A DNA stretch of 64,000 bases from a bacterium. GTDB lineage: Bacteria > Hinthialibacterota > Hinthialibacteria > Hinthialibacterales > Hinthialibacteraceae. Of the stretch, positions 4,996-31,683 are shown piece by piece. The first letter of the stretch is position 1. Each line of letters opens with the position of its first letter. The stretch lies in assembly GCA_963662285.2 (NCBI GenBank), contig CAXXMV010000002.1:928001-992000 (forward strand), read 5' to 3'. The notes beneath the pieces are model-generated. The model worked only from the letters and a program-made list of their open reading frames with translations, was not told the origin of the DNA and made no database searches. A program made the position numbers and the translations under genes.

Positions 4996-5021
4996 GATAA
5001 TAAAATAATTGAGGTAATATT

Positions 5022-6888: not shown

Positions 6889-7028
6889 AACCCCTCTTGT
6901 GAATTCTCCCCCAAACTTGGGGGAGAGGGGTGGTGTTATATAACCAGTTATATCGTTTTGACTTAGTAATATAAAATACTGTGGCCAAACATTCCTCTCC
7001 CAAGATTGGGAGAGGTTAGGAGAGGGTT
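6889..7028. repeat. two REP-like GC-rich palindromes
   Basis: CTCCCCCAA-AC-TTGGGGGAG (6906-6925) and CCTCTCCCAA-GA-TTGGGAGAGG (6994-7015) followed by TTAGGAGAGGG. Confidence 0.7.
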
Positions 7029-7092
7029 GATACTAACCACCAATGCAGATGAATAACTGATATAGTTTGTAATATTAGAATATCTCTGGTTT

Positions 7093-7842: not shown

Positions 7843-7872
7843 ATAGCATTGGAGTAGTTTAATATAAACGTT

Positions 7873-9495: not shown

Positions 9496-9496
9496 A

Positions 9497-11456: not shown

Positions 11457-11497
11457 TTTAAATGCTAGATTTATGAAGACTTAGAAAATCCCTTACT

Positions 11498-11607
11498 CTG
11501 CTTTGGGAGCAGTGGGTCGGGAGTTCGAATCTCTCCGCCCCGATAATTTAAGTCATTCATATTTGGTCATTTAGAGTTTTTCTAAATGACCTTTATTTTT
11601 GTCAATT
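11498..11607 (+). repeat. att-like copy of tRNA-Pro 3' half plus terminator, inverted relative to 31242-31351
   Basis: 110 bp with 1 mismatch to the reverse complement of 31242-31351; starts in the anticodon stem (CTGCTTTGGGAGCAG) and lacks the 5' acceptor strand and D arm. Confidence 0.93.
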
Positions 11608-11692
11608 TAAATAAGAATCCCAATTCTCGAAATATAGCAATTCCCCAACAATTTACCCTACGTGAATATAATTGTGGTGCAGCACTCTTCTA

Positions 11693-12571
11693 TTACTTGT
11701 CGATAAGTGCGTCAAGAAACTTGTAGAATTCCAGAGTCGCCGGATCATCGGGTTTGCCAAGATCATTATTCAACTGGCTGTGGTTACTCTCCCGTTTGCC
11801 GAAGGCCTTGGCCGAGATGCCAGCGTCCTTCAGCACGGCTTCCAGGCGCCCTGCCTGAGCGCGGGTGTCGGGATTGCCGGAAAAGAACAGTAGCAGGAAC
11901 GGCGGTATGCCTTTGTTCTTCGCAACGTGCGTCACAGCTGAGAAGTCGACGTGTTTAACCGGATCGTTCCCAAATTTCTGCCGATGACCAAACGTGAACA
12001 TCTTGCCGCCATAGATAGTCTGCCGATGCTCAGCCGTCATGATGATTTTGGGAATATCATAAGTGTCGCCATCCACCGGTACGCACCCCTTGAGGACTTC
12101 AAACGAGACGCCTTCTTCCTTCAGGTAACGATCATCGATGCAAATTAAAGCAGCTAGTTGAGCGCCAGCGGAATGTCCACCGACAAAGATTCGCTTTGGA
12201 TCGCCGCCATATTGCGCGATATTTCTGTGCACCCAGCCCAGCGATTTGGCGACGTCGCGGATCAGCGCATCCATCTCCACGTCGGGTAAGAGACGGTAGT
12301 TGGTAGATACGAAGACAAATCCTCGCTCAGTCAACACTTTGGGTTTTAGCGCAACATCGCTCTTATCTCCAGTCTGCCATCCACCGCCGTGTATCCAGAA
12401 CATGACAGGCAATCGTCCATCAACCTCTTTTTCGGGTGTGTAAATATCGAGAACCTGTCGTTCATGACCATTCTCGACATAGGGGATATCAGTCGTTAAC
12501 TTCTGCGTACTACCGATGTTGCAGAAGGATAGAAATGAGAGCGCAAAAACAGCGATAAGTTTTAAGTTCAT
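11693..12571 (-). CDS. secreted alpha/beta hydrolase (HSL-like esterase)
   Basis: Signal peptide, HGGGW oxyanion motif, GHSAG nucleophile. Confidence 0.92.
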
Positions 12572-12686
12572 GATAAGGAATTCCTTAGTAAAAGAATTTA
12601 TCTACGCGTTCTGATCCGGTATCAATTGTGACATCGTCACACAAGTTTAGCAAGAAACCTCACATTAAGTGTACTGAATCCAAATG

Positions 12687-15600
12687 TTATTGATGTGCGC
12701 GTGCGATATCGAGCTGGGCCTCATGAATGGCGCTACGCTGAATTCTTGGATTCTGTTCTAACGCTTTTTGGAGTTGGGCTGCTGCTTCCTGTGTATTATT
12801 TCTTTCTTCAAGAATCAGAGAATACAAATAATGGCCGATTGCTTTACGGTTGCCCCGGTATTCAAATTCGCCGGAAGTCAGTTTTTGCGCCTGTTTTTCT
12901 AATTGATTGATAATCGAATTGTATTTTTCGCTATTATCTAGCGCCTTATATGCCAATGCTTGATAAAAAGAACCCAGGTGAAGCCGGGTATACTTTTCGG
13001 AAATGATTTGCTTGAGAAATTGCTCAGCCTTCGTTTTTTCATTCATAGCTAAATAAGTCTTGGCTAGATTCCAATTGACATGAGCGCGGAAATCTGGAGT
13101 ACGCGCTGCGACTTCAAGATTTTCGGGATAAAGACAGGCTTCTTCATAATGTTTCAAAGCGGTCTGAAAATCCTTTGCGTCAAAAGCCAGATCCCCGAGT
13201 TTTTGATTGACTTCAACCCACGCATGATGAACGCCGTATTTTCCTTCCCAACTATGGAAATGATGGTTGCGAAGCGTTTGATAGGCTTTGCTCAACCGGT
13301 CCTTGTCTCCTGTTAAGAGCCGCAGATCGATTAAGCGGGAAATGAGGTCATCACGGGTATTAACCACATCGATTTGATTTTCCAGGTTTTGCAAACGTTC
13401 GGAAACTGGTTTTTGCAGAGTTTCACAAATTGTCTCATATTCCAGCAAGGCGCGGGCATCTTGTGGATTTATTTCAAGCGTTTTTTCATAGGCTTGCAGC
13501 GCAGCGTTCAAGTCATGATTCAAAAATCGTTCACCATACCCGATATTGCGCCAGGCGTGTGCATGTCGATCATTATATTGCGCGGCCTTCAGCCAATGCG
13601 CAAAGCCGTCTTGCAACTGTCCACTGGCATAAAGCAGGTTGCCAAGGAACAGATGGGCGTTGGCATCCTGCTCATGATAACGGATGGCCGCTTCCAGAGC
13701 GGCTTTGCCTTCCAGGCGGTGTGGATTGGTGTAGTCAACCAGACCTTTTTGCGCCCGGACATAGAAATCGGCCGCCTGGTCAGAATTCCCCAAAAGTTCT
13801 TGAAAATATCCCCTGAAATAATTCACCATTGGATTTAATTCGGAATCCGCTTTTGTGTTAGAGAACATTGCAAGGATTGAATCTGCCGTTTGGTAAAGAC
13901 CAGCGTTGGCGTAAGCAGTCGCCAATGTCAGATAATTTTGAACTTCATCCCGCATAAGACGTTCCCAGTCTCTTTGCCCTGAACGCTCCGGCTCATTGAT
14001 TGACAATGAAACAAGCATTTTTTCACAAGCAGCCATGAAATTGAGTGGATCAAGTTCCATGGCGTGATCCGCTGCATGGAGCGCTTCGGATCGTTTCCCT
14101 TGATGACGGAATGCCGCCGCTTTTAGAGCGTACAGATCGGCGAATTTTCCGTTTTGGCTGATCGCTTCATCAAGTTTTTCGATGGCCGCCTTGAATTCAC
14201 CTCTGCGCAAGTCGATTTTCGCCAGGTTATAATAGGCGGCTGAGAAGAATCTATAAGTATATGTCGCCCTATAGAACATATCGTATGCTTTGGCGAAATC
14301 TTGGAGACCGACATACGCCAGGCCATTTCCAAAGTAAATGCGTGAATTGTCGTTATCACGTTCCCGGGCGCGATTTAGATATTGCAAGGCTTCATTCCAC
14401 TTGCCCTGCTTGAGAGCAAGATACCCCATTTCTATATTAACCCGCGTATCCCCTGGATCCTTTTTGAGCGCTTCTTGATAATAGGTTAAGCCTTGTTTAG
14501 TCCGTCGAAATTTATCCAGCCATTCGCCTGAGCGGTAGAGTTGATCCTGGTTCATTTTCTTAGGATCGCCCGGATCACGGTCTCCCGGAGGCAAATCAAC
14601 TTGTTTTGGTTTTTGTTGCTGCAACTCGATGCAAAGATTGTCTTGAGCGTCATACACCGCGAGATGAAGATCGTAAACCGTGTCGCCTTCATCGGTTTCC
14701 ACCTCGACTGTATAGGGTTTATCCGGCGCAATCGCTTTTGTTTCGTTCGATAGAATGACGTCAGTCCGGGTGTTTTTCAGCACGATTTTGGCATTAGGTA
14801 CAATACCCGTGGGATAGACGGCGCCAAAAGCTTTCCCGTCTTTCAAATCGGTATTGACTGCGAAATCTTTATTAGCGTTTTGAATGCCGCGAGTATCCCG
14901 AACCGGATACCAGTAATCATGTGCGGTTTTGACTTCGTTCGGCCACATCCAGTGATAATCGGGCTGGTTATCGCTCCAGGCGCCAGCCTGCGGCTCAAAA
15001 TAAGGGCCTCCGCCTTCAGTCAAGATATCTTCCCAAATGCGTCCCGAAGGACCGGAACCCCATGTCCAGAGTTTTTTACCAGGCATGATATGATGATCCG
15101 CCACATGAATCATTCCGCCATTTTCACGATGGTCATAAGTTCCAAACCAGTCGGAAGGGTTGTTAAAAGCGAAATAACTGCTGGCGTTGGGAGAATTTTT
15201 CCACCAGGTTAAATCGATCCCATCGTGGATGGGCCAATTCCAAAACTGGTGTTTTCCATGTCCGGTAACCATATCTCCGGGATACTGAGCTTGCGTCCAC
15301 TCATTCGCATGAGTCGCTGATGTTGCCCAAAATTGGAATGAGTGTTGTTGGTTGGTTGGATTGATAAAAATGTAATCACAGCGGATATTACTACGGCCAG
15401 GGAAAGCGGTCATGCCGACCAGCCACCTCATGCCGTATATCCGATCAGTTTCTCCCACCCAAACCGTCGCGCTGCCATCATCATGGTGAACGATTCGCCA
15501 ATCCACTGGCATAAAGCAGGACGGACGGTGCCCGTGAGGGAAATTCCATTCAATACCTCCGGATATCCATGCACCCGTCATGCCGATCAGGCCGGGTTTT

Positions 15601-15983
15601 ATAGTTTCCTGCCAGTACATCCAGACATAACCATTGGTTTTATCGCGTGCGCCGTGGAGCCTCCCACCGATTTCTGGAAGAATGAGAACTTGTATAAATT
15701 CGTTTTCCAGAAATACGCCTTTGTATGTTTTATCCACTTTATGATTGGTCAATATCTCATTGAGAGTGTAAGGATAAATAGCGCTGCCAGAATCGAAAAA
15801 GTTGGAATGAACTTGAAGCGGACCGGTTTCCCATGTGGGAATGCTAATCTCTTTTTCATAGGCTTTCACTTCAGCATGAACATTGATTTGAAAGAAAATC
15901 GAGAAGGCGAACACAATGAAAATAAACAGATTATTCATAGTATTTTTCCCTTTGCATAGAACAAGGTAGAAGGATATTCTCAT
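12687..15983 (-). CDS. DUF5107 + TPR repeat protein (likely start 15938, with signal peptide)
   Basis: LPEIGGR...KPGLIGMTGAWISGGIEWNFP.GHRP and GKKLWTWG, recognised as DUF5107; long C-terminal TPR array. Confidence 0.85.
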   Translation of the reverse strand: MRISFYLVLCKGKNTMNNLFIFIVFAFSIFFQINVHAEVKAYEKEISIPTWETGPLQVHSNFFDSGSAIYPYTLNEILTNHKVDKTYKGVFLENEFIQVLILPEIGGRLHGARDKTNGYVWMYWQETIKPGLIGMTGAWISGGIEWNFPHGHRPSCFMPVDWRIVHHDDGSATVWVGETDRIYGMRWLVGMTAFPGRSNIRCDYIFINPTNQQHSFQFWATSATHANEWTQAQYPGDMVTGHGKHQFWNWPIHDGIDLTWWKNSPNASSYFAFNNPSDWFGTYDHRENGGMIHVADHHIMPGKKLWTWGSGPSGRIWEDILTEGGGPYFEPQAGAWSDNQPDYHWMWPNEVKTAHDYWYPVRDTRGIQNANKDFAVNTDLKDGKAFGAVYPTGIVPNAKIVLKNTRTDVILSNETKAIAPDKPYTVEVETDEGDTVYDLHLAVYDAQDNLCIELQQQKPKQVDLPPGDRDPGDPKKMNQDQLYRSGEWLDKFRRTKQGLTYYQEALKKDPGDTRVNIEMGYLALKQGKWNEALQYLNRARERDNDNSRIYFGNGLAYVGLQDFAKAYDMFYRATYTYRFFSAAYYNLAKIDLRRGEFKAAIEKLDEAISQNGKFADLYALKAAAFRHQGKRSEALHAADHAMELDPLNFMAACEKMLVSLSINEPERSGQRDWERLMRDEVQNYLTLATAYANAGLYQTADSILAMFSNTKADSELNPMVNYFRGYFQELLGNSDQAADFYVRAQKGLVDYTNPHRLEGKAALEAAIRYHEQDANAHLFLGNLLYASGQLQDGFAHWLKAAQYNDRHAHAWRNIGYGERFLNHDLNAALQAYEKTLEINPQDARALLEYETICETLQKPVSERLQNLENQIDVVNTRDDLISRLIDLRLLTGDKDRLSKAYQTLRNHHFHSWEGKYGVHHAWVEVNQKLGDLAFDAKDFQTALKHYEEACLYPENLEVAARTPDFRAHVNWNLAKTYLAMNEKTKAEQFLKQIISEKYTRLHLGSFYQALAYKALDNSEKYNSIINQLEKQAQKLTSGEFEYRGNRKAIGHYLYSLILEERNNTQEAAAQLQKALEQNPRIQRSAIHEAQLDIARAHQ

Positions 15984-16037
15984 TAATACCGATTTTCACA
16001 CGACGCTAAAGAAGAATCAAGATTAAGGTAGCAGATG

Positions 16038-16352
16038 TTTTGCATCCGTATACGAGAACGCAGAATATATTGAAAAGTAGTAACAGGTCAGCCATATGAA
16101 GTAGTAACACTATAACTATGTTTTATACAAGGCTTTTTTATTAAAATTCTCCCCCCAGGTTTGGGGTAGGGATAACGCACTTCAATTGGCTGACCAGTTA
16201 TGAAAAGTATTGATTTACAATTTAATCCAAATTGAAATTAAACATTTTTGCACCAAATGGCTTCTTCACACCTCTTTAATGTCCCTTTGCCAGCCGTTTT
16301 TCGTTTATTGAGCGCTCACCTTGCCGCCTGTGCATTACCCTTAAATCCAACC
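16038..16352. repeat. dispersed repeat, copy 1 (interrupted by a MITE)
   Basis: Aligns by eye with 21959-22158 once the ~16080-16200 insert and one duplicated flank are removed. Confidence 0.8.
16080..16201. mobile_element. MITE-like non-autonomous element (~120 bp)
   Basis: 22-bp IR TAACAGGTCAGCCATATGAAGT / ACTTCAATTGGCTGACCAGTTA (19/22), flanked by direct repeat TGAAAAGTA (16071-16079, 16201-16209); internal REP-like hairpin. Confidence 0.75.
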
Positions 16353-16448
16353 AGTATGTTGTTCTTACTAATAAATCCAAAGATTCACTTTTCTATCGTT
16401 TTACAATTTGGATATCTATCACAATTGATAGAAAGAATATTTTAGAGA

Positions 16449-17492
16449 CTATTCGTTTACATTCACAACTAATTTTGAAAATGCAGATTGCCGAATTGCT
16501 TCCATTATCGCCATTACGCGCCGGATATGCGCAGGGGGAACCATTAAAGGTTCTTGTTTCTGAAGTGCGGCGTATAGATTCCTATAAAATAAAATGCCTT
16601 CAGGTACAATTCGATCTGGAACCGGATACTCAATCTCAATTTGTTCCCGGATTCCTTGGGTCTTGGCAACTATACGACGAACTACCGCTGGGCCAATATC
16701 GCTTTCTAGTAAAATAGAACCTTCTTGACCGATCACGTACCACCGGGGAAAATGATGGGGCGTAATGCGGGAATTTTCCGCCTTTACATTCAATCCATCT
16801 TCATACATCAAACTCGCAAAATATGCAGTCTCAACTTCATCTGACCATACAGCAATCTTCGTCTCCGCATAAACAGTAGCAATCGGTCCGGGCGCCAGCA
16901 ATAGAAGTTGATCAATATCGTGGGGGACGCAATCGTAAATCACACCACCGCCATAAGCTTTTTCCTGGCGCCAGGTTGGCCGATATTCCTGCGCCGGATA
17001 AGCCAAGGTGGAATCATATTTCATGCGCCGGGATTCGATTCCCAAGACCTTACCCACAACGTTTTCGGATAGAATTTTTTGAATGCAAGCAAATCCCGGT
17101 TCCCATCTTCGATTCTGAAACAGGCTCAGTAAACGCCCGGATTTTTCGGCTGTTTGCAGAATCCGGGCGGTTCCCGGTAGATCTAACGCCAGGGGTTTGT
17201 CGACCAGTAAATCTTTTTCAGCGGCAAGCGCCTGCAAAGCAATGGTTTCATGACTGGCGGTGGGCGTTGAAATGACGACTAGCCTGATTTGCTCATCAGA
17301 TAGAAACGTATCAAGGTCCGAAAAAATTCGCGCATTAGGAAGTCGGGATGAAGCAATTTCACGCCGTGCAGGAGTCGTATCACAACCAGCGACAATCTCT
17401 AATCCCTCTGTTGCTTCAATACACGGTACGTGAATTTCTAATCCACTTTTACCTAGTCCTACAATTCCCACTCCAATCATATCATTCACCAT
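16449..17492 (-). CDS. Gfo/Idh/MocA oxidoreductase
   Basis: GVGIVGLG Rossmann, LVDKP, QNRRW, GGGVIYDCVPHDID. Confidence 0.92.
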   Translation of the reverse strand: MVNDMIGVGIVGLGKSGLEIHVPCIEATEGLEIVAGCDTTPARREIASSRLPNARIFSDLDTFLSDEQIRLVVISTPTASHETIALQALAAEKDLLVDKPLALDLPGTARILQTAEKSGRLLSLFQNRRWEPGFACIQKILSENVVGKVLGIESRRMKYDSTLAYPAQEYRPTWRQEKAYGGGVIYDCVPHDIDQLLLLAPGPIATVYAETKIAVWSDEVETAYFASLMYEDGLNVKAENSRITPHHFPRWYVIGQEGSILLESDIGPAVVRRIVAKTQGIREQIEIEYPVPDRIVPEGILFYRNLYAALQKQEPLMVPPAHIRRVMAIMEAIRQSAFSKLVVNVNE

Positions 17493-18840
17493 TAATATTA
17501 GTTTTCAGGTTCAAGCGGGATTTCATCCACTTGGCTTGTACAAGAAGAAAAAGAAGCATGATGGTTGCCATGACGCTCATGCAGACGCAAAGGATTTTGA
17601 ACGGTTCGAAGCTACCATAATAACGGTATAGCGCTCCGATAACCGGCTCCTGGATGATTGGTCCAATGCTGCCGATACCGTTTATCACGCCGACGGCGGA
17701 AAGCGCGTCTCGCCGTCCCGCTATAGCAATGGCGCCGGCGCCATTAATAATACTGTCTGGACCATAGAGCATGAATCCGACTAATCCATACAAACACGCC
17801 AAAATGAAAGGGCTTCTTGAACCATAAACAATAACCAGAATATAGGCTAACGTCATCCCGATAGTCATCGTCAGACAAAGCAAGCGCCAGTTTCCTTTGA
17901 AGATGCGATCCAGCGCCCATCCTGAAAGAATCACTCCGGCAAAACCAGCCCAATCAAAGATTGACGAATAATACGCAGCGAGCTCGCCGGATAAATGGCT
18001 TTCTACGGTCAAGAAATAAGGCAGCCAGGAATCCAATGAATAGCGCAAAAACTTTAAGGTGAAATAGGTCAGGCCCATACAAACAATCACGGGATTACTC
18101 AACACGCGGAAAAAACCACCGAAAGTCATATTTAAGGCAGGATTAATTTTTTTCTCTTTTTCATTGATTTGCGCTTCATCATCATGGGTTATGATAGGTT
18201 CTAAACCGACATCTTCCGGGCAGTTGCGGTGCCAGAAATAAACAACGAGCCAGATCAAACCCATGCCAACGGAACAAGCCCAAAATGCTGTACGCCATCC
18301 CGTATATCCAAGCATGAATCCAGCCAGAAATTTAACACCCAGGTTTCCTGCGAGGTAATTGGTATTCCAGATTCCCATGATTCGACCGCGTTCCTCTTTC
18401 CGCAGCCAATGCGCCACTCCGCCCACATTGCCAGGCCAACCGCTGGCTTGCGCCAGACCGTTTAAAATCATGAAACCCACAAACGTTTCGAACGAATTGG
18501 CAAAGCCGAAAATGATGTTACATCCCAAGGAAATAGCCATCCCCGTCAGTAAAAGAATACGGGAGCCAAGTTTCCGCCCTAACATACCATTAATAAACTG
18601 GCCTACCATGTAGGCAACTAAAAATGCTGTCCAAATATGCGCTACACCCAATGCATCAAGTGAAAATTCGTCGCCGATACTTTTTTTACATACTGAAAAT
18701 GCTTTCCGGCAAAGATAGTATCCTGCATAGCTGGAATAGGTGGCTATAAGAATCCGCCATCGCCACTTACTTTGCTCTTTTTGCAAAGGCGGCAGTGTTT
18801 TCGATATGTTACCTGTCTTATGATTGGTTGCAGAATTCAT
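17482..18840 (-). CDS. MFS transporter, GlpT/UhpT (organophosphate:Pi antiporter)-like
   Basis: YAGYYLCRKAFS, GWPG..ERGRIMGIW, YGPDS motifs; about 12 TM. Confidence 0.88.
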   Translation of the reverse strand: MNSATNHKTGNISKTLPPLQKEQSKWRWRILIATYSSYAGYYLCRKAFSVCKKSIGDEFSLDALGVAHIWTAFLVAYMVGQFINGMLGRKLGSRILLLTGMAISLGCNIIFGFANSFETFVGFMILNGLAQASGWPGNVGGVAHWLRKEERGRIMGIWNTNYLAGNLGVKFLAGFMLGYTGWRTAFWACSVGMGLIWLVVYFWHRNCPEDVGLEPIITHDDEAQINEKEKKINPALNMTFGGFFRVLSNPVIVCMGLTYFTLKFLRYSLDSWLPYFLTVESHLSGELAAYYSSIFDWAGFAGVILSGWALDRIFKGNWRLLCLTMTIGMTLAYILVIVYGSRSPFILACLYGLVGFMLYGPDSIINGAGAIAIAGRRDALSAVGVINGIGSIGPIIQEPVIGALYRYYGSFEPFKILCVCMSVMATIMLLFLLVQAKWMKSRLNLKTNINGE

Positions 18841-18855
18841 AGTTTTGAGTCAGAT

Positions 18856-20001
18856 TTATAATGATTTCAATATTTCCTGAACAGCCCAAATAAGGTAGCC
18901 TACTTCATCCTCTGTGTAACCTGGAAAAATCGGCAATCCAAAAAGGGTTTGAGCCACTTGCTCCATGATTGGACAGGGTTGAAAATCCCCAACCGCCTTC
19001 GCAATAACTGGAAAATCGTACCAAGGTTCATATTGAAAAGATGTTTCGATGCCGTAATCAGTCAATATTTTTTGTCGCAACGCTTCACGCGTTGCACCAA
19101 ACACAGAAGAGTCAAGCCGACAGGGGTACATATGATACGAATGCGTTATGCCTTTCGGCTCAAAAGGCGTGATAAATCCTTCAATACCTTGAAAGGCTTT
19201 GGACATTCTTCGCCCGATTGCTCTGCGCTTTGCATTAACGCTATCCAAGCGTTTCAGTTGTTCGATCCCAATCGCGCATTGCACCGCTGATAGCCGATAG
19301 TTGCTTCCCGCTTGTTCATCATGATCGTAGTTGCGCAATTTCCTGGCGCGTTCAGCATATTCCTGGTGAATGGTAGTCAGCATTCCTCCTTCACCTAGTG
19401 TGCTTATGTTCTTTTGCGATTGAAAACTAAAACATGAAATATCGGCCCATGCCCCGCATTTCACATCCTTATACACCGAGCCTAGTGCATGAGCCGCATC
19501 TTCGAGAACCGGGATTCCATAGTTATGGCCGATTCGCATTACGGCATTCGCATCAAGCGGCAGGCCCGCGTAGTCAATCACATAAATCGCCTTGGTGTTT
19601 GAGGTAATACTCGCTTCGAGTAAATTCAAATCAACGTTTAAACTATCTGGATCGATATCCACTGGAACCGGCCGCGCTCCAGCCAAGACGATTGGCAACA
19701 CCGTAGCCTTAAACGTCAGTGCAGTAACAAGGACTTCATCACCCGGTCCGATGTCCAATAGCCGAGTTGCCAATTCCAAAGCAGTGCCGCCCGAACTCAC
19801 CGTAATCGCGTGCTTCACGCCTATATACGCGGCGAATTGGTTTTCAAACTCAACGATCTCTGGAGAACGACGGTCCAGTGGACGGCGTTTTTCAATCGCG
19901 TCTCGAATAATCTCTACCAATACCCTTTCTTCTTCTTGGCCAAAAATTGCACCGGTATAGGGCCAGGGAATCTCAAATTGCTTCGGGGTGTAAGTTTGCA
20001 T
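18856..20001 (-). CDS. DegT/DnrJ/EryC1/StrS PLP aminotransferase
   Basis: SSGGTAL, EDAAHA, SFQSQKNISTLGEGG (PLP lysine), GSNYRL. Confidence 0.93.
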   Translation of the reverse strand: MQTYTPKQFEIPWPYTGAIFGQEEERVLVEIIRDAIEKRRPLDRRSPEIVEFENQFAAYIGVKHAITVSSGGTALELATRLLDIGPGDEVLVTALTFKATVLPIVLAGARPVPVDIDPDSLNVDLNLLEASITSNTKAIYVIDYAGLPLDANAVMRIGHNYGIPVLEDAAHALGSVYKDVKCGAWADISCFSFQSQKNISTLGEGGMLTTIHQEYAERARKLRNYDHDEQAGSNYRLSAVQCAIGIEQLKRLDSVNAKRRAIGRRMSKAFQGIEGFITPFEPKGITHSYHMYPCRLDSSVFGATREALRQKILTDYGIETSFQYEPWYDFPVIAKAVGDFQPCPIMEQVAQTLFGLPIFPGYTEDEVGYLIWAVQEILKSL

Positions 20002-20077
20002 TATTTATCGGATCGTTCGATTTGGTGATATTGAGGTTAAAAATATTATCTTATCATAGAAGATGAACGCTAAATCA

Positions 20078-21652: not shown

Positions 21653-21958
21653 AAGAAATAGACCTTTATAAAAATAAAATAGTAAATTAACAGGTTCTTA
21701 TGAATGAAAATATGTCATGTTTCTTAGTATAAATAAGGATTGCAAACTCAATCGCTCTCGTTTTTCGATAAGATAATCATACTCTGGTTAAAAGTCAAAT
21801 TCTAAAATTATTCTAAAATCATAATATATCGCCATATATATCATATCTGTTTGATTTTGTATAGCAGATAATTCACAACGGTGGATTTGACTGTATCAAG
21901 GGGGATTGGCTCAGGTGATTTTGATTGTATAAATTTAGTTAATGATCAAGTACAAGGC

Positions 21959-22158
21959 TTTTGCATCCGCATAAGAGGATTCAGAATATATTGAACAGTG
22001 ATGATTTATGATTTATGATTTACGATTTACACCCAATTGTGAGCAAACATTTTTACACGAAATCGCTTCTTCACACCGCTTGAAAATAGCCATTTCCAGC
22101 TGTTTTTCTTTTATTGAGAGATCACCATGCCGCTTGAGCGTCATCCTGAAATCCAACC
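21959..22158. repeat. dispersed repeat, copy 2, with a (TGATTTA)n heptamer tract
   Basis: Homologous to 16038-16352; heptamer repeated about 4x at 22002-22029. Confidence 0.8.
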
Positions 22159-22328
22159 GCCATTTGCGCTCATCGACATTTGGTTTGACAATCCTGTTTA
22201 TCTCATAATGCAATTGAATGAATAGTACACTCAATAGAATCTCTCTAATTCTTGTTTCTAGTCAATATATTATATATACTGAAAAATCGATTTTGATATA
22301 ACTATAGTTCTACTGGAAGGATTCCTAT

Positions 22329-23510
22329 ATGAGAATCCCTGTAAAAAAATTGGGCGCTTCTAAGTTTCCTTTATTCTTTCTTGTAACTTATGCCATCTTA
22401 CTGCTATCCACTAATTTGAATACATTTGCACAGGTTGAAAAACTTGAAGTTGGTCCATTCAAACTTGGTGGAGCAGTACGTGCGAACTTGTTTTATAAAG
22501 ATTGGAATCACTTAGAACGATTGGATTTGGATACTGTACGTTTGAACCTTGAGTTCGAAATGCAGGATTTCATTGGCTCCGCCGAATATCGATATTATTA
22601 CTATCAGGACATCGAGCGAAGTACTCACATGTTACATCATAGTTGGCTGGGATATCGTTTTACAGAATCAGACCAAATACATCTCGGCGTTCATCAGGTT
22701 CCTTTCGGCATACTACCCTACGCATCGCATAACTGGTTTTTTCAACTCCCTTATTATGTTGGATTGGAAGACGATTACGATCTTGGAGCAAAATACATAC
22801 ACCAGGATGACAATTGGAACTTCCACCTTGCGTATTATGCTGAAGATGAAGGGCATTATAACGGAAGAAGCAACGACAGCGCTCGATATTCATACGATCT
22901 GGTTACTGAAGGCCTCGCACAAAATGAAGAAAAAAATCAGTTCAACCTGCGATACGCTTATACCTGGACTCATTCTGAAAATCACGCCAGCGAATTGGGC
23001 GTATCGTTACAATTAGGTCAAATCCACAACCGCTTGACGCATGACGACGGCAATCAATACGCAGTCGCTCTACATCTCAACGAAACATGGAATCGATGGA
23101 ATGCCATGTTCGAAATAATCCGCTATGAAAATTCCTTGCGTAATCCTATAGGTCAACGTGATGATTTCGTGTTAATGGGGGCTTATGATTTTCCATATCA
23201 AGTCGCCAGCAGCGCCAGCATATACACAGTCGGTATAGGTTACACAATTCCAATTAAAGATTCGTTTGTAGATTCAGTGACATTTTATGATGATTTCAGT
23301 TTTATGCATAAAGACAAAGCAGATTTTCTCAGCAGTTGGCAAAATGTTGTAGGAGCATCCGTGTCCGCCGGGAACTTTTTCATATATTTCGACGTGGCGT
23401 CCGGTCGAAATCATTCCTGGTTAGGTCCTGATTGGACTGAATCTTTTTCTTCTGGTGGAGACGATAACTGGCATACCCGTTTTAATATTAACATCGGTTT
23501 CTATATTTAA
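22329..23510 (+). CDS. putative outer-membrane beta-barrel porin
   Basis: Signal peptide, aromatic-rich amphipathic strands, C-terminal NINIGFYI beta-signal. Confidence 0.75.
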   Translation: MRIPVKKLGASKFPLFFLVTYAILLLSTNLNTFAQVEKLEVGPFKLGGAVRANLFYKDWNHLERLDLDTVRLNLEFEMQDFIGSAEYRYYYYQDIERSTHMLHHSWLGYRFTESDQIHLGVHQVPFGILPYASHNWFFQLPYYVGLEDDYDLGAKYIHQDDNWNFHLAYYAEDEGHYNGRSNDSARYSYDLVTEGLAQNEEKNQFNLRYAYTWTHSENHASELGVSLQLGQIHNRLTHDDGNQYAVALHLNETWNRWNAMFEIIRYENSLRNPIGQRDDFVLMGAYDFPYQVASSASIYTVGIGYTIPIKDSFVDSVTFYDDFSFMHKDKADFLSSWQNVVGASVSAGNFFIYFDVASGRNHSWLGPDWTESFSSGGDDNWHTRFNINIGFYI

Positions 23511-23547
23511 GGTGCGTTTATGAATTTTTTCCCTTTATCTATTATCA

Positions 23548-24297
23548 TCAGGTTGGCTTGGAAACAGTAATAATCGGATCAATCATTCCCATATCGCCCA
23601 AATCCCGAAGTGTTTCTAAATGTTTAATATTCAATGTAATTCCTTCAACAACAAAAATTTGATTACCATCTTTGCTACACACCGGACGCGCTAGAACCTG
23701 TCCAGATTTGGCGTCATTGATATTAATGGTCATGACATCGTGAGAAATAATCACACATTGCCCGGATTCTTTTACTATAGAGGAATCTTCAACCTGCGAT
23801 GACGCGTTATGTTCCAGGATATCCCGAATACGCGTATCAACATCCAAGGCTTCGTATTCGGATATCTCTTTCAAACTGGAATCATCCATTGGATCATGCG
23901 TTTTGAAGATGCGCAGAAGCCGGTCGGTCAAAGTTTGTTTGGTAACCGGTTTCAAGACAAAAGAGTTTACGTCCAGTTGAATGGCCAGCTCCACCAAGGC
24001 GCTGTCACTGTGACCGGTTAACATCAATACGGGCAGATTACGACGGATGTTTTTATGGCCGGTACGGATATGCTTCAACAACAGCAGTCCATGCATAATA
24101 GGCATGTTGAAATCGGCAATTACGCAATGGATGCTGTGCGATCTTTCTTCTAACAGGCTAAGAGCTTCTATACCATTGGTTGCGCTATAAGTTTGCGGAT
24201 CGCCCATGTTTTTTAACAAACGCAAAACTGTAATCCTGGAGAAATTATGGTCATCTACAATTAGAAATGTACGGGTGGGAAATGTAATACCGCCCAT
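23548..24297 (-). CDS. response regulator (REC plus uncharacterised C-terminus)
   Basis: LIVDD, ADFNMP.MHG, LTG, KP; no recognisable HTH. Confidence 0.88.
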   Translation of the reverse strand: MGGITFPTRTFLIVDDHNFSRITVLRLLKNMGDPQTYSATNGIEALSLLEERSHSIHCVIADFNMPIMHGLLLLKHIRTGHKNIRRNLPVLMLTGHSDSALVELAIQLDVNSFVLKPVTKQTLTDRLLRIFKTHDPMDDSSLKEISEYEALDVDTRIRDILEHNASSQVEDSSIVKESGQCVIISHDVMTININDAKSGQVLARPVCSKDGNQIFVVEGITLNIKHLETLRDLGDMGMIDPIITVSKPT

Positions 24298-24302
24298 CGG
24301 TT

Positions 24303-27300
24303 TTACCTCTTATTTTTTAGAGTTACGATAAAATTTTCAACTTCGCTGTATTGTTCTCGGGCGGTTTGAAATTCCGAACGAAGATCATCCCACGACTGCT
24401 CCATAGCGCCCAGTTGTAATTGTTTCATTGTTTCAGATAAAGTCATAGCGGCTGCGTTCCCGGCTCCACCTTTGGCGCTATGCGCGTTATCGCGAAGCAT
24501 TGAACGGTCTTCTGATTCAAAGGCTATTTCGATATTTTGCATGAGTCCATCAAAGTCCTCAACAAAATATTCGAGCATTTCTACCAATCCTTCATCATCC
24601 TCTTCCCCCAGGATTTCCTTGAGTTGTTCTAAATCGACCGGTGGAGAGACCTCTACATTGGAATTGGATTCGGCGGGTGGAGAAGATTCGTCCATTCGGA
24701 AAGGCTCAGTCAGGATCGGCGTTTCTTCCCGTTCGTCAGGCGCCTCCACAGGAATTTGATCCTGGGGAAGCCAGTGAGAGAGTTTTTGGGCAAGGCTTTC
24801 GAGAGTAATCGGCTTGGTTGCGACATCGTCCATTCCTGCTTTAAAGCAGGCTTCGACATCTTCTTTCATTACATTCGCGGTCATAGCGATTATAGGCATG
24901 CGTGTGCCGCGTTCGGCTTCCCACTCACGATAGGCCTGGGCGAACTCGTACCCGTTCATTTCCGGCATATTAATATCAGTGAAGATGAGAAGATAAGTTC
25001 CGTTTTGGGCGCGTTGAAGGCCTTCCCGCCCATTGTTCGCCGTCTCACATTGTAAACCGAATGCATCAAGTTGTTTTTTAGCAACCTGCCGGTTCATGGG
25101 CAGGTCGTCAATTACTAATATGGGCGTTTCGAATTTCGCCGCCCGAATCCTCTGAAGAATTTCATTGGAATCACCCGCAGATTCCCCACCCTCATAAATG
25201 AATTCTATATTCAAATACTTGTGAAGCTGGTCGAATATCTCAGATTCCTTGAATGGTTTGCGCAAGAAATCATCGCAACCCGCTTCAATCACCTTCTTAC
25301 GGTCATCTTCAAATGCGCTGGCCGTAAGAGCAACAATGATAGGCCCGATTCCCTCTGATTCTCTCTTAATAATACGGGTGGCTTCGATTCCATCCATGAC
25401 CGGCATTAGTAAGTCCATCCATATCAAAGATGGTTTCTGTTCCCGCCACAAACGAATGGCTTCTTCACCATTCACCGCTTCAATTACAATAAAGCCCACC
25501 CTCTCCAACAATTCTGTAAGTAATTTCCGATTTTCTTCTTTGTCATCAACTACCAGAAGCGTATGGGCGGGCTGTCCTGGCTGGATGCCGGTTACGCGAG
25601 TTGGAGTAAAAATTGACTGATCCTTCACATCTCCGGCGCCAACCACAGGCACGGAAATATCAAATCCGAAACAAGTGCCAACATCCACCTTGCTTCGAAC
25701 CGTAAGTTCCCCTCCCATAATCCTGACGAATTCCCGGCTGATGGCTAGGCCTAAGCCCGTTCCCTGTTGGGAATTCACACCACTGGAAGTTTGTGAAAAC
25801 GCTGAAAAGAGTTTCCCTATTTCATCTTCAGCAATACCGACTCCCGTATCTTCCACTTCGATAATTAAAGAACCTTTGCTTTCATTCTTACTTTCAAAAC
25901 CAGCTCGTAAACTTATGCCGCCCTCATGAGTGAATTTTACGGCGTTGCCCAGCAGGTTTACGATGATTTGACGAATTTTCTTCTCATCACCTCGTATATA
26001 GCGCGGGACTTCACCAACATGCTCGATCAATAATGAAAGCCCCCGCTCCTCCACGCGCATGCAAAACATATCTTCCATATCTTTGATTACGCGATGCAAA
26101 TCGAAATTGGATTCATCTAGTTGGATGCGTCCCGCTTCGATTTTAGACATATCCAGAATGTCGTTGATCAGGTTTAAAAGGTGGTCGCCGCTGCGGCAGA
26201 TAATATCAAGGTTCTCCCGTTGCTCGCTGCCCAATACCGGATCCCGTTGTAATAACTGGGAAAAACCGATTATGGCATTCATGGGAGTACGGATTTCGTG
26301 AGACATGTTAGCGAGAAAGGAACTCTTGGCATGGTTGGCGTCTTCAGCGGCTAATCGTGCATGAACCAGTTCTTCTTCCGCTTTTTTACGCGCATGAATT
26401 TCATGCGAAAGCCGCCGGTTCCACCATAATCCTATAACCAATAAAACCACAAAACCGCCAACAATGCGGAAAATAAGGCCGTAATCAATCCTTTGAATAA
26501 AAACATCATTGCGATCCCAATGGCTGAGGATATCACGGTGCTCTTCCGGTTCCATAGACTGAAGGACTTTGTTGATAATATCGCGAAGCAGGGGCCAGTC
26601 TTGCCGTACGGCCAGGGTGATTTCCATATCAATTCCCAGCGTTCCCGCAATTTCTATATTGTGCATGCCCAACTCTTTAATCATGTAACTGCCTAATCCA
26701 AGCGCACAAACCAGCGTATCAATCTGTCCGCTTGAGACGGCTTTCAAACCTTCTTCTATATTCTCGACCTCCTGAAACTTGATATCAGGCCAAGTCTTAT
26801 ATAGACGGTTCAGGTAGCCGTAGCCCTTTATGACAGCGATGCTCCCACTAGAAACTTGATTGAGATCAGTGACAAAGATATCACTTTTTTTACGGATTGC
26901 AGCGATGGGATTCGATATATAAGGCTTTACGAAATCAAACTTGGATTGGAGAGTTGTGGAACCGACAGTTTGAGAAATAATATCTACATCACTATTCAGC
27001 GCCATCTCAATCGCTCCACTCCAACTGGGCGGGGATATACGCTGAATGGTTATTCCCAAACGCTCTTCGATAAGAGTGAGATAATCATTAACAATTCCGA
27101 TACATTGACCTTCACCGGTAAAAGATTCGTATGGAAGCCACATCGGAGCGCCAGTAAAACGGATATCCGGATGCTCTTCCAGCCAGTCTTTTTCCTCATC
27201 CGTTAGTTCAATGGTCTTCGCGTCGGCTTGAATTTTTGCCGCCAGGCTGAACGGGATCCAATTACTTTTGATGCGGTTGTGATCGGCGGCTGAAAGATCA

Positions 27301-28040
27301 TCCAATACCACGCTGATGATTTCATGCAATTCCGGCCAGTCTTTACGTATGCCCATGTGAACATCAAGTGAGTCGAACGGAGCGGGGACAGTGGCTTCAA
27401 TCCCGCTAAGTGAGTATTCGTTAATCGCATAACCAGTCGAGTTAATATCACCAATATAAGCAGAAGCCGTTCCCGTAATGAGTGTAAGCAATGCTTCCCG
27501 GATCGAGAGTCGGGTGATTATGGGAATAGCAGGATGCCCGCTTTTCATTTCCTCCACGGTGCTGTATCCTTCTACCAGAGCAACCGTTCTGCCTTTCAGG
27601 TCGTCAAAACTCTGTATCTCCTGTTGCCCGGCAAGTGTGAAAACAAAATTTGTTACCCTGTTATAGGAGGGTGTATAGAGCAAAAATGTTTCCCGCTCTG
27701 AATTACGGTACAGCGCTGGTAAAATATCAACTTTTCGATCTCTCGCCAATTGTAGTAGCGTATTCCAACTTTTTTCAATATGGAATTTAAATTGAAGGCC
27801 TGTGCGTTTTGAAATGATTTTCAGGTATTCTTCCGCAATCCCCTGGTACCGTCCCTGGTTATCGATAAAGTCATAGGGCGCCCAGTCGGTTTCACAACCA
27901 ACGGTGATTGTATGGTTTTCTTCGAGCCACGCTTGGGCTTCGGGTGAGAGAGATTCAAGAAATGCTGAATCAGGTTCAGAAAAGGAAACAGAGATTGATA
28001 ATGTGGCTATAGTAACAGATAGAAGCAGAATTCGAGTCAC
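24303..28040 (-). CDS. BvgS/EvgS-like hybrid sensor kinase (2x periplasmic SBP, HisKA, HATPase, 2x REC, HPt)
   Basis: DWAPYDF / WLPYES SBP domains, [26 protein letters not shown], two REC domains, AHSAKG HPt. Confidence 0.95.
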
Positions 28041-28960
28041 GATGCCTCCTGAAGAAGGATATCAATAGCATAATAATAATTTAGTCTCAATACGGTATAA
28101 TATCTTGTAATACTAGGTGATAGAATATCAGGGATTTTCGATTTTGAATAGGAATATCACTCCTTGGATCTAATGATTATCTCAAAATTTGAAATTCCCT
28201 ATTTAGTAAAGGAGTAAGGCTAAAATTTTCAAGTATAATGATTATGTAAACGCATGCCTTGATATCTAAGATTTTTAATTCTAATAAATTTTGATTTAGA
28301 TCTTATCTAGGTATCGCGAAGTTACAACCAATTTCTACTGATGTATCCGTAGATAAGGCGTTTTAATATGTAAGCAAGTCTAAGTGATCATAACTAATTG
28401 ATTAGGGTATATTTGTCATTACTACAATTCGTTACTATGGATCAGAATGCTCCAGGATCAGACTTCCTGAACTCACCCGTGGTTCTCGCGGGATTTTGTT
28501 AGGATAATCTGGTTGGGAAGCAAATCATCCTGAGATTGAGAGACTCTCCAGTGCGTGAGGGAGTTAACAAATTCCGCAGACCTTATTACCTCTATTCGCA
28601 TCAGGCGAAGGATTAATATCCGAGTTGATTTCCTATCAAAAATGATTCTCCCTTCCTACCAAAATTCGCATTTGTTGGATGCGAGTTGTTCCCGCTCATC
28701 AAGCCCACAATATAAAATCTTTCAAGATCAATGGAATTTCCGCTTGAATTATATCCATATTGGTTCCATTCTTAGATATGTGTGATACAAAGATGAAATA
28801 ATGTAAGAATATAACCTCAATAATAGCAGGAAAGTATTAATTGTTGGATGTAAGTTTGACATCTATAGATAGTATGTATTTGGTCTGTTGCATACTCATA
28901 ATGAATTCTGATCAACTCGCCTTCATTGGCAACAATCAATAATCCAGGACGGAGAGAGCC

Positions 28961-30946
28961 ATGTTGCTCATGCTTACATTTATTTTTTTGTTAATAGTGG
29001 GATCGATTGCAGAAGCCGAACCGACGATATTCAAGTCATGGGAGTTTGATAGGTGGAACGATCAACAGGGCTGGAATGTACCGTCAGCGTTAGGTGGATC
29101 CGTTATGGGAAGTGGGATTTGGTTGCATATCCAAATGTTGCCGGAACATACGCAGGAGTTAACGTGGCGTCAACTCATTTGGCTTCCGCATCCTCCGTTA
29201 TCTTTGGTATCACCCTCAGGTCTCGGTATAGATACGGCATACGCCACGAAGGTTAGGTTGCGTGTCTTGAACCAATCTCCTGAAACGGATGGCTTGTTCA
29301 TCTGGCGCACGACATCAGCACCGGATGAGAATGCGGGAACCGTGCGTTTCACAATGCAACCTATGTGCGACAAGTGGCAGGATGTAGTGGTCGACATGGA
29401 TAACCGATGGTCGGGTGTTGTAGACCAAATACGCATATTACCGGCGCTGATTGGAACTTCGGGCGACATGTGGATCTCGCGGATTGCCCTGACTGATGGG
29501 GCTCCGGCCCCGACAAAGGCGCGTCCGGATGTGATTAGCGCTACTGTCATTCCCCGGATTACGCTGCCAGATATTGACCAGTCGGCATTTGCCGATGCGT
29601 TCAAGGTGCTTGACGAATGTCTGATCAACAATGCGCCTGTACATGGTTTTACCGAGCCGGTCATGGGGCCAGGTGGCGCCTATGGGGAAAACTGGTGGCA
29701 ACTGGATTCGTCTTTGACGTGCGATGGGGCAAAGTGGGTCAACCAATCTTTCGCAGAAGGAGTGCTTAGGGGATTCGCTTCAGTGCAATCGCAAAATCCG
29801 GATGGCAGAATCGATCTGTGGGGTGGCGCCCCAAGCCGGGGAATGCCAGCCTTGGCGAGTAGCATCCCACGTCTTTTTGAGGTGGGCTATCGGATAGCAC
29901 GGCGCAGCAGCGATGACGGAGTAAGGCGATTGGCGTTTGAGGTTCTCAGCAAGTATCTGGATTGGTGGCTTTCTCCAGTCAAGCATGATACTCAAACGGG
30001 TTTGATTACCTATGCTTTTGAGGAAACCTTTTGTGAGCCTATCGATACTCCGCAGACAATGGCTCCAGTAGATCTGCAGGTGGCCGTTGCGATTGGATGC
30101 TCCTATGTGAGTAAACTTGCGGAGTGGGTGGGCGAGATCGATGCGGCGAATCGATACCAGAAGGCTTTTGAATACCTGAAGAATGCCATCAATAAGTATT
30201 GTTGGGATGAGGAAGACGGAGCATACTACAACTTTAATGTAAAGACGCTGACTCGCAGTAAACGTCTGATCGTATCGACGTTTGATCCATTACGACTTGG
30301 CATCGCACCTGATGAACGCGTCGCGCGTCTCTTGCAGAAACTGACTGATCCAGCACTTTTCAATTGGGGAATCCGACCGCTAACGAGCCTTGCGAAGACG
30401 GAGCAGGACTATGTGGAGGCTGAAGGTACCTACGACGGTCGGGCATGGTTTGGCGACATCTGGACGATGCGCAATATACCGGTAATTTTTGGTCTGCGAG
30501 ATTGCGGACATGACGAACTCGCAGCCCAACTGGCGTGGGACACCGTAAGAATTTTTAACGCAAATTACGCCGAATATGTGACGCCATCCAAAGGTAAGGG
30601 AGAGGGTGTCATGAGATACGGTTGGTCGGCTTCTCAGTACATTCAGGCGGTGATTGAGCATGTTTTTGGCATTGACTATGATGCAGTGAATAAGCGCCTG
30701 AGCATTGCACCGCTTCTGGTCCCTGAACTTCGTAGGTGTCGTATTGCGATCAAGGGATTACGTTTGCCGACGCCAGAAAACTCGCGGCTATCGGTCGTGA
30801 TTGCTCCACACGAAAATGGTGGAATCCAAGTTGATGTGGCGGTGGAGTCAGTACCAATTGGATTATCGCTAGTCATTCGACTCGACGGTGAAGTACAAGA
30901 GATGCCGCTTGGTTCCGAACAACGCATTGTTATTAAACAGCAGTAA
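28961..30946 (+). CDS. secreted (alpha/alpha)6 glycoside hydrolase, GH63/trehalase-like
   Basis: Signal peptide, YGENWWQLDS, APVDL, WDEEDGAYY, WFGDIW, AEY....G.G....YGWSA. Confidence 0.75.
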   Translation: MLLMLTFIFLLIVGSIAEAEPTIFKSWEFDRWNDQQGWNVPSALGGSVMGSGIWLHIQMLPEHTQELTWRQLIWLPHPPLSLVSPSGLGIDTAYATKVRLRVLNQSPETDGLFIWRTTSAPDENAGTVRFTMQPMCDKWQDVVVDMDNRWSGVVDQIRILPALIGTSGDMWISRIALTDGAPAPTKARPDVISATVIPRITLPDIDQSAFADAFKVLDECLINNAPVHGFTEPVMGPGGAYGENWWQLDSSLTCDGAKWVNQSFAEGVLRGFASVQSQNPDGRIDLWGGAPSRGMPALASSIPRLFEVGYRIARRSSDDGVRRLAFEVLSKYLDWWLSPVKHDTQTGLITYAFEETFCEPIDTPQTMAPVDLQVAVAIGCSYVSKLAEWVGEIDAANRYQKAFEYLKNAINKYCWDEEDGAYYNFNVKTLTRSKRLIVSTFDPLRLGIAPDERVARLLQKLTDPALFNWGIRPLTSLAKTEQDYVEAEGTYDGRAWFGDIWTMRNIPVIFGLRDCGHDELAAQLAWDTVRIFNANYAEYVTPSKGKGEGVMRYGWSASQYIQAVIEHVFGIDYDAVNKRLSIAPLLVPELRRCRIAIKGLRLPTPENSRLSVVIAPHENGGIQVDVAVESVPIGLSLVIRLDGEVQEMPLGSEQRIVIKQQ

Positions 30947-30973
30947 TCCCTATTGTCACAACAGTCCAAAGGA

Positions 30974-31120
30974 ATGCTGGCTAAAGTCTCCCCTTGTCTA
31001 GGACCATGGATTAACCATTTTCATGAAGAATCCTGGTATGTTGGATACGCTCCGAATACAATTCGTAAGAAGCATAATTTCGGAAATGAAGATAAAAGGC
31101 TCATTCCTTTAATGCGATAA
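30974..31120 (+). pseudogene. possible remnant of a tyrosine-recombinase N-terminal domain
   Basis: 48-aa ORF with LGPWINHF...GYAPNTIRK, reminiscent of integrase N-terminal SAM-like helices; next to the tRNA att site. Confidence 0.3.
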
Positions 31121-31247
31121 TGTTATTAAGTATATTGAGGCAGAGATCACAAAATGGAAAGTTCACTCTGATATATCAATCTTGTCTGGATCAAGACTGG
31201 TTATTAATCAGTAAATTGCACGATCATTGCACAATATGGATAATTGA

Positions 31248-31284
31248 CAAAAATAAAGGTCATTTAGAAAAACTCTAAATGACC
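31248..31284 (-). terminator. intrinsic terminator of tRNA-Pro
   Basis: GGTCATTTAGA-GTTTT-TCTAAATGACC followed by TTTATTTTT on the minus strand; duplicated at ~11565-11601. Confidence 0.8.
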
Positions 31285-31305
31285 AAATATGAATTACTTA
31301 AATTA

Positions 31306-31379
31306 TCGGGGCGGAGAGATTCGAACTCCCGACCCACTGCTCCCAAAGCAGTTGCGCTACCAGGCTGCGCTACGCCCCG
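31306..31379 (-). tRNA. tRNA-Pro(TGG), CCA not encoded
   Basis: CGGGGCGTAGCGCAGCCTGGTAGCGCAACTGC-TTTGGGA-GCAGTGGGTCGGGAGTTCGAATCTCTCCGCCCCGA folds as a cloverleaf with anticodon TGG. Confidence 0.96.
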
Positions 31380-31683
31380 AATTATATTGTCTTTACCATC
31401 GCAACGTATTATTACCGCCGCGAATGCGGATTGTAGCCTAAACCATCTTTTGACTCAATCCTCGGAGTGCGCTGAGACTTCAATTATTGTACATCTTTTT
31501 TTGTACGGCGTCCCTATCATTTCCAATCGCGTCTCAAATCTCTGTTTTGTTGGCTTCATATTATCGATTGAGTAGAATTTATTTATACTGGATAAAATGC
31601 ACAAACACCGGTTATAGATCAAAAAAATAAAAATATTAAAGAATTCGCTGATATTAGCCTTTCTGCTTTTTACAATATCCTTT

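Follow-up and report, generated by a model that had tools for sequence, protein, structure and literature searches.

Is a segment of bacterial chromosome that lies between two inverted copies of part of a tRNA gene a mobile island, an inversion switch or the scar of a past rearrangement? The question is raised by a stretch of 64,000 nucleotides (64 kb, hereafter the window) from a member of the Hinthialibacteraceae (assembly GCA_963662285.2, contig CAXXMV010000002.1, positions 928,001 to 992,000), in which a 110-nt sequence comprising the 3' half of a tRNA-Pro gene and its terminator stands at either end of a 19.6-kb segment (hereafter the block), with an insertion sequence (IS) of the IS1634 family close to the left copy. 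The findings favour a rearrangement scar in native chromosome, the IS beside it being unrelated, over an island bounded by attachment (att) sites or an inversion switch. We propose that the repeat is a recent duplication made within this genome and left by a one-off rearrangement of native chromosome, and that the block has since been static or only rarely flipped by RecA. To this reading as a whole we give a probability of roughly 0.42.

The inverted repeat and the tRNA-Pro gene

A search of the entire window for repeats (seed 14, at least 30 nt) returned a single inverted pair, 110 nt long and 99% complementary, the members of which are called here the left and the right arm (coordinates of these and the other features are collected in Table 1). 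When the arms were compared directly they differed at one position in 110 (C at 11554, opposite 31295), which divides the repeat into exact runs of 56 and 53 nt, and the base-by-base comparison showed that the identity breaks off sharply at either end. Chance alone would not be expected to yield an exact inverted run of 56 nt in 64 kb. The 110-nt sequence is present in exactly two copies within the window and is otherwise unique there.

The only tRNA gene of the window is a tRNA-Pro(TGG), placed at 31305-31380 on the minus strand by ARAGORN and at 31306-31379 by the Rfam model RF00005 (65.2 bits). Each arm consists of positions 29-74 of this gene in Rfam numbering (46 nt) followed by 64 nt of trailer, and the outer limit of the repeat is the second base of the anticodon stem. 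The trailer holds a terminator-like hairpin of 11 bp (11565-11591) and then a run of T, and the fold of the whole arm has a z value of -3.8. The result is one intact tRNA-Pro gene and one copy truncated at its 5' end: the 5' half of the gene has a single match in the window at up to three mismatches, the left arm was scored as a tRNA neither by ARAGORN nor by Rfam at E<=1, and a looser Rfam search of 9000-32000 returned nothing except the intact gene. The original prediction, which had been made from the letters of the DNA and a list of its open reading frames (ORFs), had described a 110-bp reverse-complement pair with one mismatch that covers the 3' half of tRNA-Pro from the anticodon stem together with its terminator. 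The pair was found again at exactly those positions, and ARAGORN, Rfam and the hairpin agree with the content that had been assigned to it.

Assemblers can be misled by inverted repeats, and the contig is large (at least 1.85 Mb), comes from a poorly sampled lineage and is possibly a metagenome assembly, so a mis-join or a mis-orientation at a short repeat has to be considered. Against this, the arms differ at one position and their exact runs are shorter than ordinary reads and the larger k-mers, all four junctions have unique and coherent flanks with intact genes, and a mis-orientation would leave the duplication itself unexplained. We give hardly any weight to an assembly artefact.

A one-off inversion as the proposed origin of the repeat

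How, then, could part of a tRNA gene come to stand in inverted copies at the two ends of one segment? We propose an illegitimate inversion in which one breakpoint would have been made by staggered nicks about 110 nt apart, across the 3' half of tRNA-Pro and its terminator. Filling in of the overhangs would copy these ~110 nt, and rejoining would place a copy at either end of the inverted segment. Such staggered breaks are predicted to duplicate a sequence that is otherwise unique and to leave its inverted copies at the segment's ends, which is what the ends of the block carry, and the inverted orientation of the arms, their 109/110 identity and their sharp ends fit this prediction. Furthermore, since the near-identity runs over half a tRNA, which is of no use by itself, and over non-coding trailer, it suggests a recent copy of the genome's own sequence rather than a foreign attachment site (attP).

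The proposed inversion also predicts the ancestral gene order: the block would have stood with its esterase end behind the tRNA terminator and with its hydrolase end facing PMT_2, a glycosyltransferase gene. With eight of the ten genes of the block on the minus strand and the genes either side on the plus strand, turning the block round again would produce a single long run of co-oriented genes. After the inversion the segment would have had no recombinase of its own and would have remained static, or would have undergone rare RecA-dependent flips between the arms with no regulatory effect. The left copy would happen to provide the genes for a GT4 glycosyltransferase, a methyltransferase and PMT_2 with a downstream terminator, and the IS1634-family element would have arrived later and independently in the AT-rich spacer beside the left arm.

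Several points weigh against this origin. The inversion of the block itself is not demonstrated. The boundary at position 29, in the anticodon stem, is the typical start of an integrase-made fragment and would have to be a coincidence, which we estimate at roughly 1 in 8 on the assumption that the break fell somewhere in the tRNA-plus-trailer region; the position of the IS, 41 bp from an arm, would be a coincidence as well. The staggered-break model is documented in flies, and a literature search that was not specific to bacteria found no bacterial example. The window represents 64 kb of the contig, and it is possible that an integrase encoded elsewhere acts in trans.

Strand asymmetry, too, shows no sign of a recent inversion. 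In a skew test that left out genes with fewer than 80 four-fold sites, the AT skew at these sites separated the flank genes by strand (means of -0.27 on the plus strand vs -0.03 on the minus strand, p = 0.0012), and the minus-strand genes of the block were intermediate (-0.13), with a log-likelihood ratio for inverted vs not inverted of +0.9. The corresponding ratio from GC skew was -3.0, though the two strands of the flanks were not separated by GC skew (p = 0.15). A search of a genome collection was anchored on the DsbH-like protein of the right flank, whose conserved CHWCHVME motif drew at least 590 stretches; the 80 loci retained were all 41-50% identical and from unrelated phyla, with no close relative among them. 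When 26 proteins of the window were compared with these 80 loci by tblastn, four weak matches (25-29%) were obtained in three loci, and no neighbourhood was shared. tRNA-Pro was absent from the 14 of the 80 loci that were scanned for tRNAs, which belong to lineages of, or related to, the Planctomycetes-Verrucomicrobia-Chlamydiae (PVC) type. A homologue of PMT_2 with 56% identity is present in Candidatus Hinthialibacter, a match which suggests a sparsely sampled lineage and may explain the scarcity of relatives.

Is the block a mobile island?

The original prediction had called the block an island with att-like ends, and the shape of the left copy is in keeping with that description, since a fragment that runs from the anticodon stem through the 3' end is the classic shape of a displaced fragment of a tRNA gene (tDNA). 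Integrases of the anticodon-loop type reportedly cross over where the boundary of the present repeat falls. The locus could therefore be the relic of an element that was inserted into tRNA-Pro by a tyrosine integrase at the anticodon loop, an event that would have restored the gene and set a displaced 3' fragment in direct repeat with it; later an inversion would have turned one repeat round, and the integrase and the other genes of the element would have been lost. Integration of mobile elements is described as a general source of tRNA gene fragments (PMC9897764, PMC4383910), and a recently active IS at the site means that the region tolerates insertions.

The gene content gives no support to this explanation. 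Pfam scans of 43 ORFs of at least 100 aa (28 + 15) revealed no domain typical of an integrase, an invertase, a resolvase or any further recombinase, nor did they reveal a recombinase or integrase fragment in 48 stop-to-stop frames from seven intergenic regions in or beside the block (52 such frames were listed, and four short ones over the tRNA were omitted from the scan). The only recombination proteins of the window are RecA and the DDE transposase of the IS1634-family element. The earlier statement that the block lacks an intact integrase is therefore upheld, and it extends to integrase fragments in both the ORFs and the intergenic frames. The block genes are metabolic and signalling genes, none being related to mobility, phage or conjugation.

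Composition argues in the same direction. The tetranucleotide signature of the block correlates with that of the pooled flanks at r = 0.945, and its GC content is 0.447 compared with ~0.44. In 5-kb tiles, r was 0.90-0.91 inside the block, 0.85-0.91 where tiles overlapped it and 0.86-0.93 in the flanks, the flank tiles having a slight advantage since they formed part of the reference. Foreign composition is seen neither in the block nor in the left flank, and with no mobility gene and a composition like that of its flanks the block does not bear out the word island.

To be accepted by the filters of Islander, a tDNA island has to combine a tRNA gene with a correctly oriented cognate fragment and with an integrase gene (PMC4383910). 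Here, the intact tRNA gene and its fragment do share one replicon, but the fragment is wrongly oriented and the segment contains no integrase gene, and of the supportive features, foreign composition or mobility genes, the block has neither. An att-like character is also contradicted by the extent of the repeat, since the identity continues for 64 nt beyond the tRNA at 109/110, which is ill-suited to an element old enough to have lost all of its genes and to have acquired the composition of its host. A core-like site had three matches at up to three mismatches, two in the arms and one outside the block, and 14 of 100 shuffled sequences reached three. Finally, a relic would require three events where one is enough. 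We consider an integrated element unlikely, and the block is most likely ordinary native chromosome rather than an att-bounded mobile island.

The IS1634-family element beside the left arm

The transposase encoded by the IS matched the profile NF033559 with 239.2 bits (cut-off 100) over profile positions 7-481 of 483. The 14-bp core CCTGAGTTTTCCAA has exactly two occurrences within the window (9497-9510 and 11443-11456), both being the ends of the IS, and the best terminal inverted repeat pairs 9492-9510 with 11443-11461. The IS1634 family is described as 1500-2000 bp long, with ends of the form C-----YT and AT-rich target duplications of 5-6 bp (PMC2266710). The present element agrees in length, and both of its ends start with CCTGAGTT, in agreement with the family form. 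Its flanks, TTGAA and TTTAA, match at four of five positions and are a candidate 5-bp AT-rich target duplication, or alternatively represent an extension of the inverted repeat.

In the protein collection, the homologue closest to PMT_2 (539 aa, 86% identity) has the same C-terminus, ...YKRSP. Since this homologue ends in the same residues, the PMT_2 stop codon is native, with the IS starting after it, and before the insertion this stop would have lain ~40 bp upstream of the left arm. Judged from these junctions, the element looks like an independent, plain insertion into an AT-rich spacer behind PMT_2, distinct from the repeat. Among the matches listed, no similarity beyond chance connected the four junction flanks with one another or with the 36-nt part of the spacer.

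The element also seems to have been active recently. A copy of the transposase identical at 575 of 578 residues is present on another large contig (1.25 Mb). The transposase falls into a large clade of ~578-aa proteins, with 524 members at E<=1e-30 among 8000 candidates scored, and most of the 120 homologues listed lie on contigs of ~1.96-2.4 kb, about the size of the IS, as would be expected of a repeat at which assemblies break. Its plasmid relatives, 12 records, are all at most 37% identical (full-length matches at most 27%).

The original prediction had also allowed for a rearrangement next to IS1634, and an intact, recently active element beside the left arm speaks for it: an intramolecular transposition into the terminator region of tRNA-Pro could have inverted the DNA in between and left a long duplication in inverted orientation. 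IS1634 and IS1549, two members of the family, make long target duplications whose length varies from 8 to 514 bp and for which no mechanism is known (PMC2266710). Furthermore, when replicative intramolecular transposition is worked through, the expected arrangement, IS - T' - inverted segment - IS' - T, is similar to the one observed. The junctions do not agree with this scheme. The IS is separated from the arm by 41 bp and has its own family-typical 5-bp AT-rich flanks; the second, inverted IS copy required at 31241/31242 is absent, and no other or solo IS end exists in the window, the two matches to the core both being the IS's own. The long direct repeats found at both ends of IS1634 and IS1549 are lacking too, the other IS end being occupied by the native end of PMT_2. 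Based on the gap, the separate short flanks and the missing second copy, an IS-mediated origin was rejected as the main explanation, and we regard it as very unlikely.

Would the block flip, and would it matter?

Both arm terminators point into the block, and the 5' part of tRNA-Pro (31352-31379) lies outside the right arm. Because of this geometry, recombination between the arms would flip 11608-31241 and leave tRNA-Pro and a terminator intact either way, and to this extent the earlier inversion reading holds. The switch function that had been attached to it does not. There is no invertase, and since the arms are identical and their terminators point inwards, a flip would alter no junction, promoter or reading frame, nor the setting in which any gene is expressed, and would change only the direction of the block relative to replication. 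The arm boundaries are crossed neither by an ORF of at least 100 aa nor by a predicted promoter, the ORF at 31455-31877 at the right edge stops outside the right arm, and the frames of 30-98 aa that cross the right arm had no family match at E<=0.01 (the one weak match was to DUF4547, E = 0.028, 14.5 bits). An invertible switch would be expected to have an invertase in or beside the segment and to exchange a promoter or a coding end, and the block shows neither.

RecA is the only visible driver of any flip. The minimal processing segment of RecA is given as 23-27 bp for the RecBC route and 44-90 bp for the RecF route (PMC12074656). The exact runs of the arms, 56 and 53 nt, exceed the former and are near the latter, and a Salmonella locus flanked by 113-bp repeats is described as recombining spontaneously in culture (PMC12074656). 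Rare RecA flipping of the block is therefore possible. A stronger version would have the block working as an invertible segment, flipped frequently by RecA, whose gene is in the window, or by a trans-encoded integrase that recognises the anticodon region of tRNA-Pro. Gene conversion during such flips would explain the near-identity of the arms, and integrase-driven inversions between inverted tRNA genes do exist in archaea (PMC5495485). But no recombinase is encoded in or near the block, a flip would change nothing at the junctions, and a distance of 19.6 kb with short homology predicts only rare RecA events. Frequent flipping appears very improbable to us, and programmed switching of the block is not supported. 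Other origins, such as a templated repair patch, take the remainder of the probability.

Gene map of the block and its flanks

The genes of the left flank from pheT onward (zapB, zapA, GT4, methyltransferase and PMT_2) are all on the plus strand. The zapB-like and zapA-like genes occupy an apparent gap behind pheT and are too short to appear in a list of ORFs of at least 100 aa. Beyond the DsbH-like gene, the right flank continues with a Na/Ca exchanger and a prepilin-type gene, both on the plus strand, and housekeeping genes that include sdhCAB and carAB. Of the genes that had been predicted for the block, the esterase, the DUF5107-TPR protein, the GDPD operon, the hybrid kinase and the glycoside hydrolase were all recognised, but the supposed porin at 22329-23510 has no family match.

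Table 1. Positions of the arms, the tRNA-Pro gene, the IS and the genes discussed (numbering of the window).
Feature	Position	Strand	Remarks
recA	1338-2363		Pfam
zapB-like gene, 81-aa frame	5013-5255	+	after pheT
zapA-like gene, 96-aa frame	5370-5657	+	after pheT
GT4 glycosyltransferase/methyltransferase/PMT_2 cluster	5688-9495	+	left flank
PMT_2-family (GT39-like) glycosyltransferase	7873-9495	+	last left-flank gene; Pfam
IS left flank, TTGAA	9492-9496	+	contains PMT_2 stop TGA at 9493-9495
IS1634-family insertion sequence	9497-11456	-	1960 bp; 14-bp perfect terminal inverted repeats
Transposase ORF, intact, 578 aa	9561-11297	-	NF033559
AT-rich spacer, IS end to left arm	11457-11497	+	41 bp = TTTAA (11457-11461) + 36 bp; unique in window
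Left arm, 5'-truncated tRNA-Pro(TGG) copy with trailer/terminator	11498-11607	+	co-oriented with upstream GT4-methyltransferase-PMT_2 genes
tRNA-Pro 3' fragment inside left arm	11498-11543	+	46 nt
Block between arms	11608-31241		19,634 nt (inter-arm distance), 10 ORFs
Esterase	11693-12571	-	block
DUF5107-TPR protein	12687-15983	-	block
GFO/IDH/MocA oxidoreductase	16449-17492	-	block
MFS transporter	17482-18840	-	block
DegT aminotransferase	18856-20001	-	block
GDPD (tandem GDPD protein)	20078-21652	-	block
Protein without family match, 393 aa	22329-23510	+	block
Response regulator	23548-24297	-	block
Hybrid histidine kinase with periplasmic binding domains	24303-28040	-	block
MGH1/GH63-like hydrolase	28961-30946	+	block
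Right arm, 3' part and trailer/terminator of intact tRNA-Pro	31242-31351	-	repeat search, direct comparison
Intact tRNA-Pro(TGG)	31306-31379	-	first 28 nt (31352-31379) outside repeat; ARAGORN, Rfam
DUF255/DsbH-like thioredoxin-domain protein	31684-33795	+	right flank, divergent from tRNA-Pro; Pfam

Within the block, a direct repeat of 41 nt (16038-16078 and 21959-21999, 85% identical, with a conserved core of ~45 nt in the alignment) stands upstream of both minus-strand operons, DUF5107-TPR/esterase and GDPD-DegT-MFS-GFO, and may serve as a common operator or promoter element for co-regulation of the two. Between the hybrid histidine kinase and GH63-like hydrolase genes, which start in divergent directions, lie ~920 bp of AT-rich non-coding DNA (28041-28960), in which none of ten frames had a Pfam match and Rfam found nothing at E<=1. 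The ORF at 31455-31877, which encodes 140 aa on the minus strand, has no family match. It overlaps the 5' end of the DsbH-like gene, which runs in the opposite direction, and is unlikely to be a gene.

Further away, the large subunit of carbamoyl-phosphate synthase is represented by two ORFs (60112-61650, 512 aa, and 61755-63569, 604 aa), the split falling within the oligomerisation domain. A REP-like motif of 34 nt is found at the end of the first of these ORFs (61619-61652), and a second copy, 82% identical, is located at 56774-56807. A cluster at 50812-54948, consisting of a second PMT_2-family glycosyltransferase (52472-53992), a methyltransferase and a 551-aa protein of no stated function, loosely parallels the GT4/methyltransferase/PMT_2 cluster of the left flank.

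Implications

For annotation the locus is a caution. A tRNA fragment is usually read as the edge of an island, but at this locus it delimits native chromosome, is wrongly oriented and is accompanied by no integrase, so neither island finders nor readers should call the block an island. If a one-step inversion did produce the 110-nt breakpoint duplication, the locus would be a clean bacterial case of a mechanism known so far mostly from flies, and if both orientations of the block were to coexist, it would be a modest case of recombinase-free structural variation; neither outcome would alter the understanding of the block genes. Should the block instead be flipped by an integrase acting in trans, it would represent a bacterial counterpart, in a scarcely studied lineage, of the tRNA-bounded inversions of Thermococcales. 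In a flipping block, the arm terminators would insulate a 19.6-kb sensory and metabolic block in either orientation.

Comparison with known systems

The Hin/Gin and Fim systems and the shufflons are built on short, recombinase-specific repeats with an invertase gene within or beside the segment, and their inversion gives a promoter or a coding end a new partner. The present locus shares with them a segment between inverted repeats, but their other hallmarks are absent. It is also comparable with the duplications made by IS1634 and IS1549, in that an IS1634-family element lies near a duplication whose 110 bp are within the described range of 8-514 bp (PMC2266710). Those duplications are direct repeats that touch both ends of the IS, whereas the present copies are inverted and 19.6 kb apart, the nearer one being 41 bp from the element.

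In Thermococcus, the integrase of pTN3 is described as inverting DNA between inverted tRNA genes or between any identical stretches of at least 104 bp (PMC5495485). As in these inversions of Thermococcales, a chromosomal segment is bounded here by inverted, tRNA-derived identical stretches of ~100 nt. The Int-pTN3 inversions occur in archaea, require a tyrosine integrase carried by a plasmid and involve whole paralogous genes, whereas the present locus has a bacterial-type IS and recA, one truncated arm, and no integrase in 64 kb. The tDNA islands recognised by Islander (PMC4383910) likewise show an intact tRNA gene and a cognate 3' fragment from the anticodon stem, tens of kb apart. Unlike them, our fragment is inverted and is accompanied by no integrase, mobility genes or foreign composition, and the identity extends 64 nt past the tRNA.

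A parallel to the origin proposed here, that of a one-off inversion with staggered breaks, is provided by Drosophila, where 17 of 29 inversions have been attributed to staggered breaks; their duplications measure 46 bp to 1.9 kb and often affect one breakpoint only (PMC1885836, Ranz et al. 2007). The model concerns the nuclear chromosomes of Drosophila, in which ends are joined, and in that respect differs from the bacterial setting. As in the fly inversions, ~0.1 kb of unique sequence stands once at each end of the segment, inverted and belonging to no transposon or repeat family. Furthermore, among 18 fly inversions with breakpoint duplications, 12 have only one of their two breakpoints duplicated (PMC1885836), and in the locus described here, too, it is the sequence of only one breakpoint that is found in duplicate.

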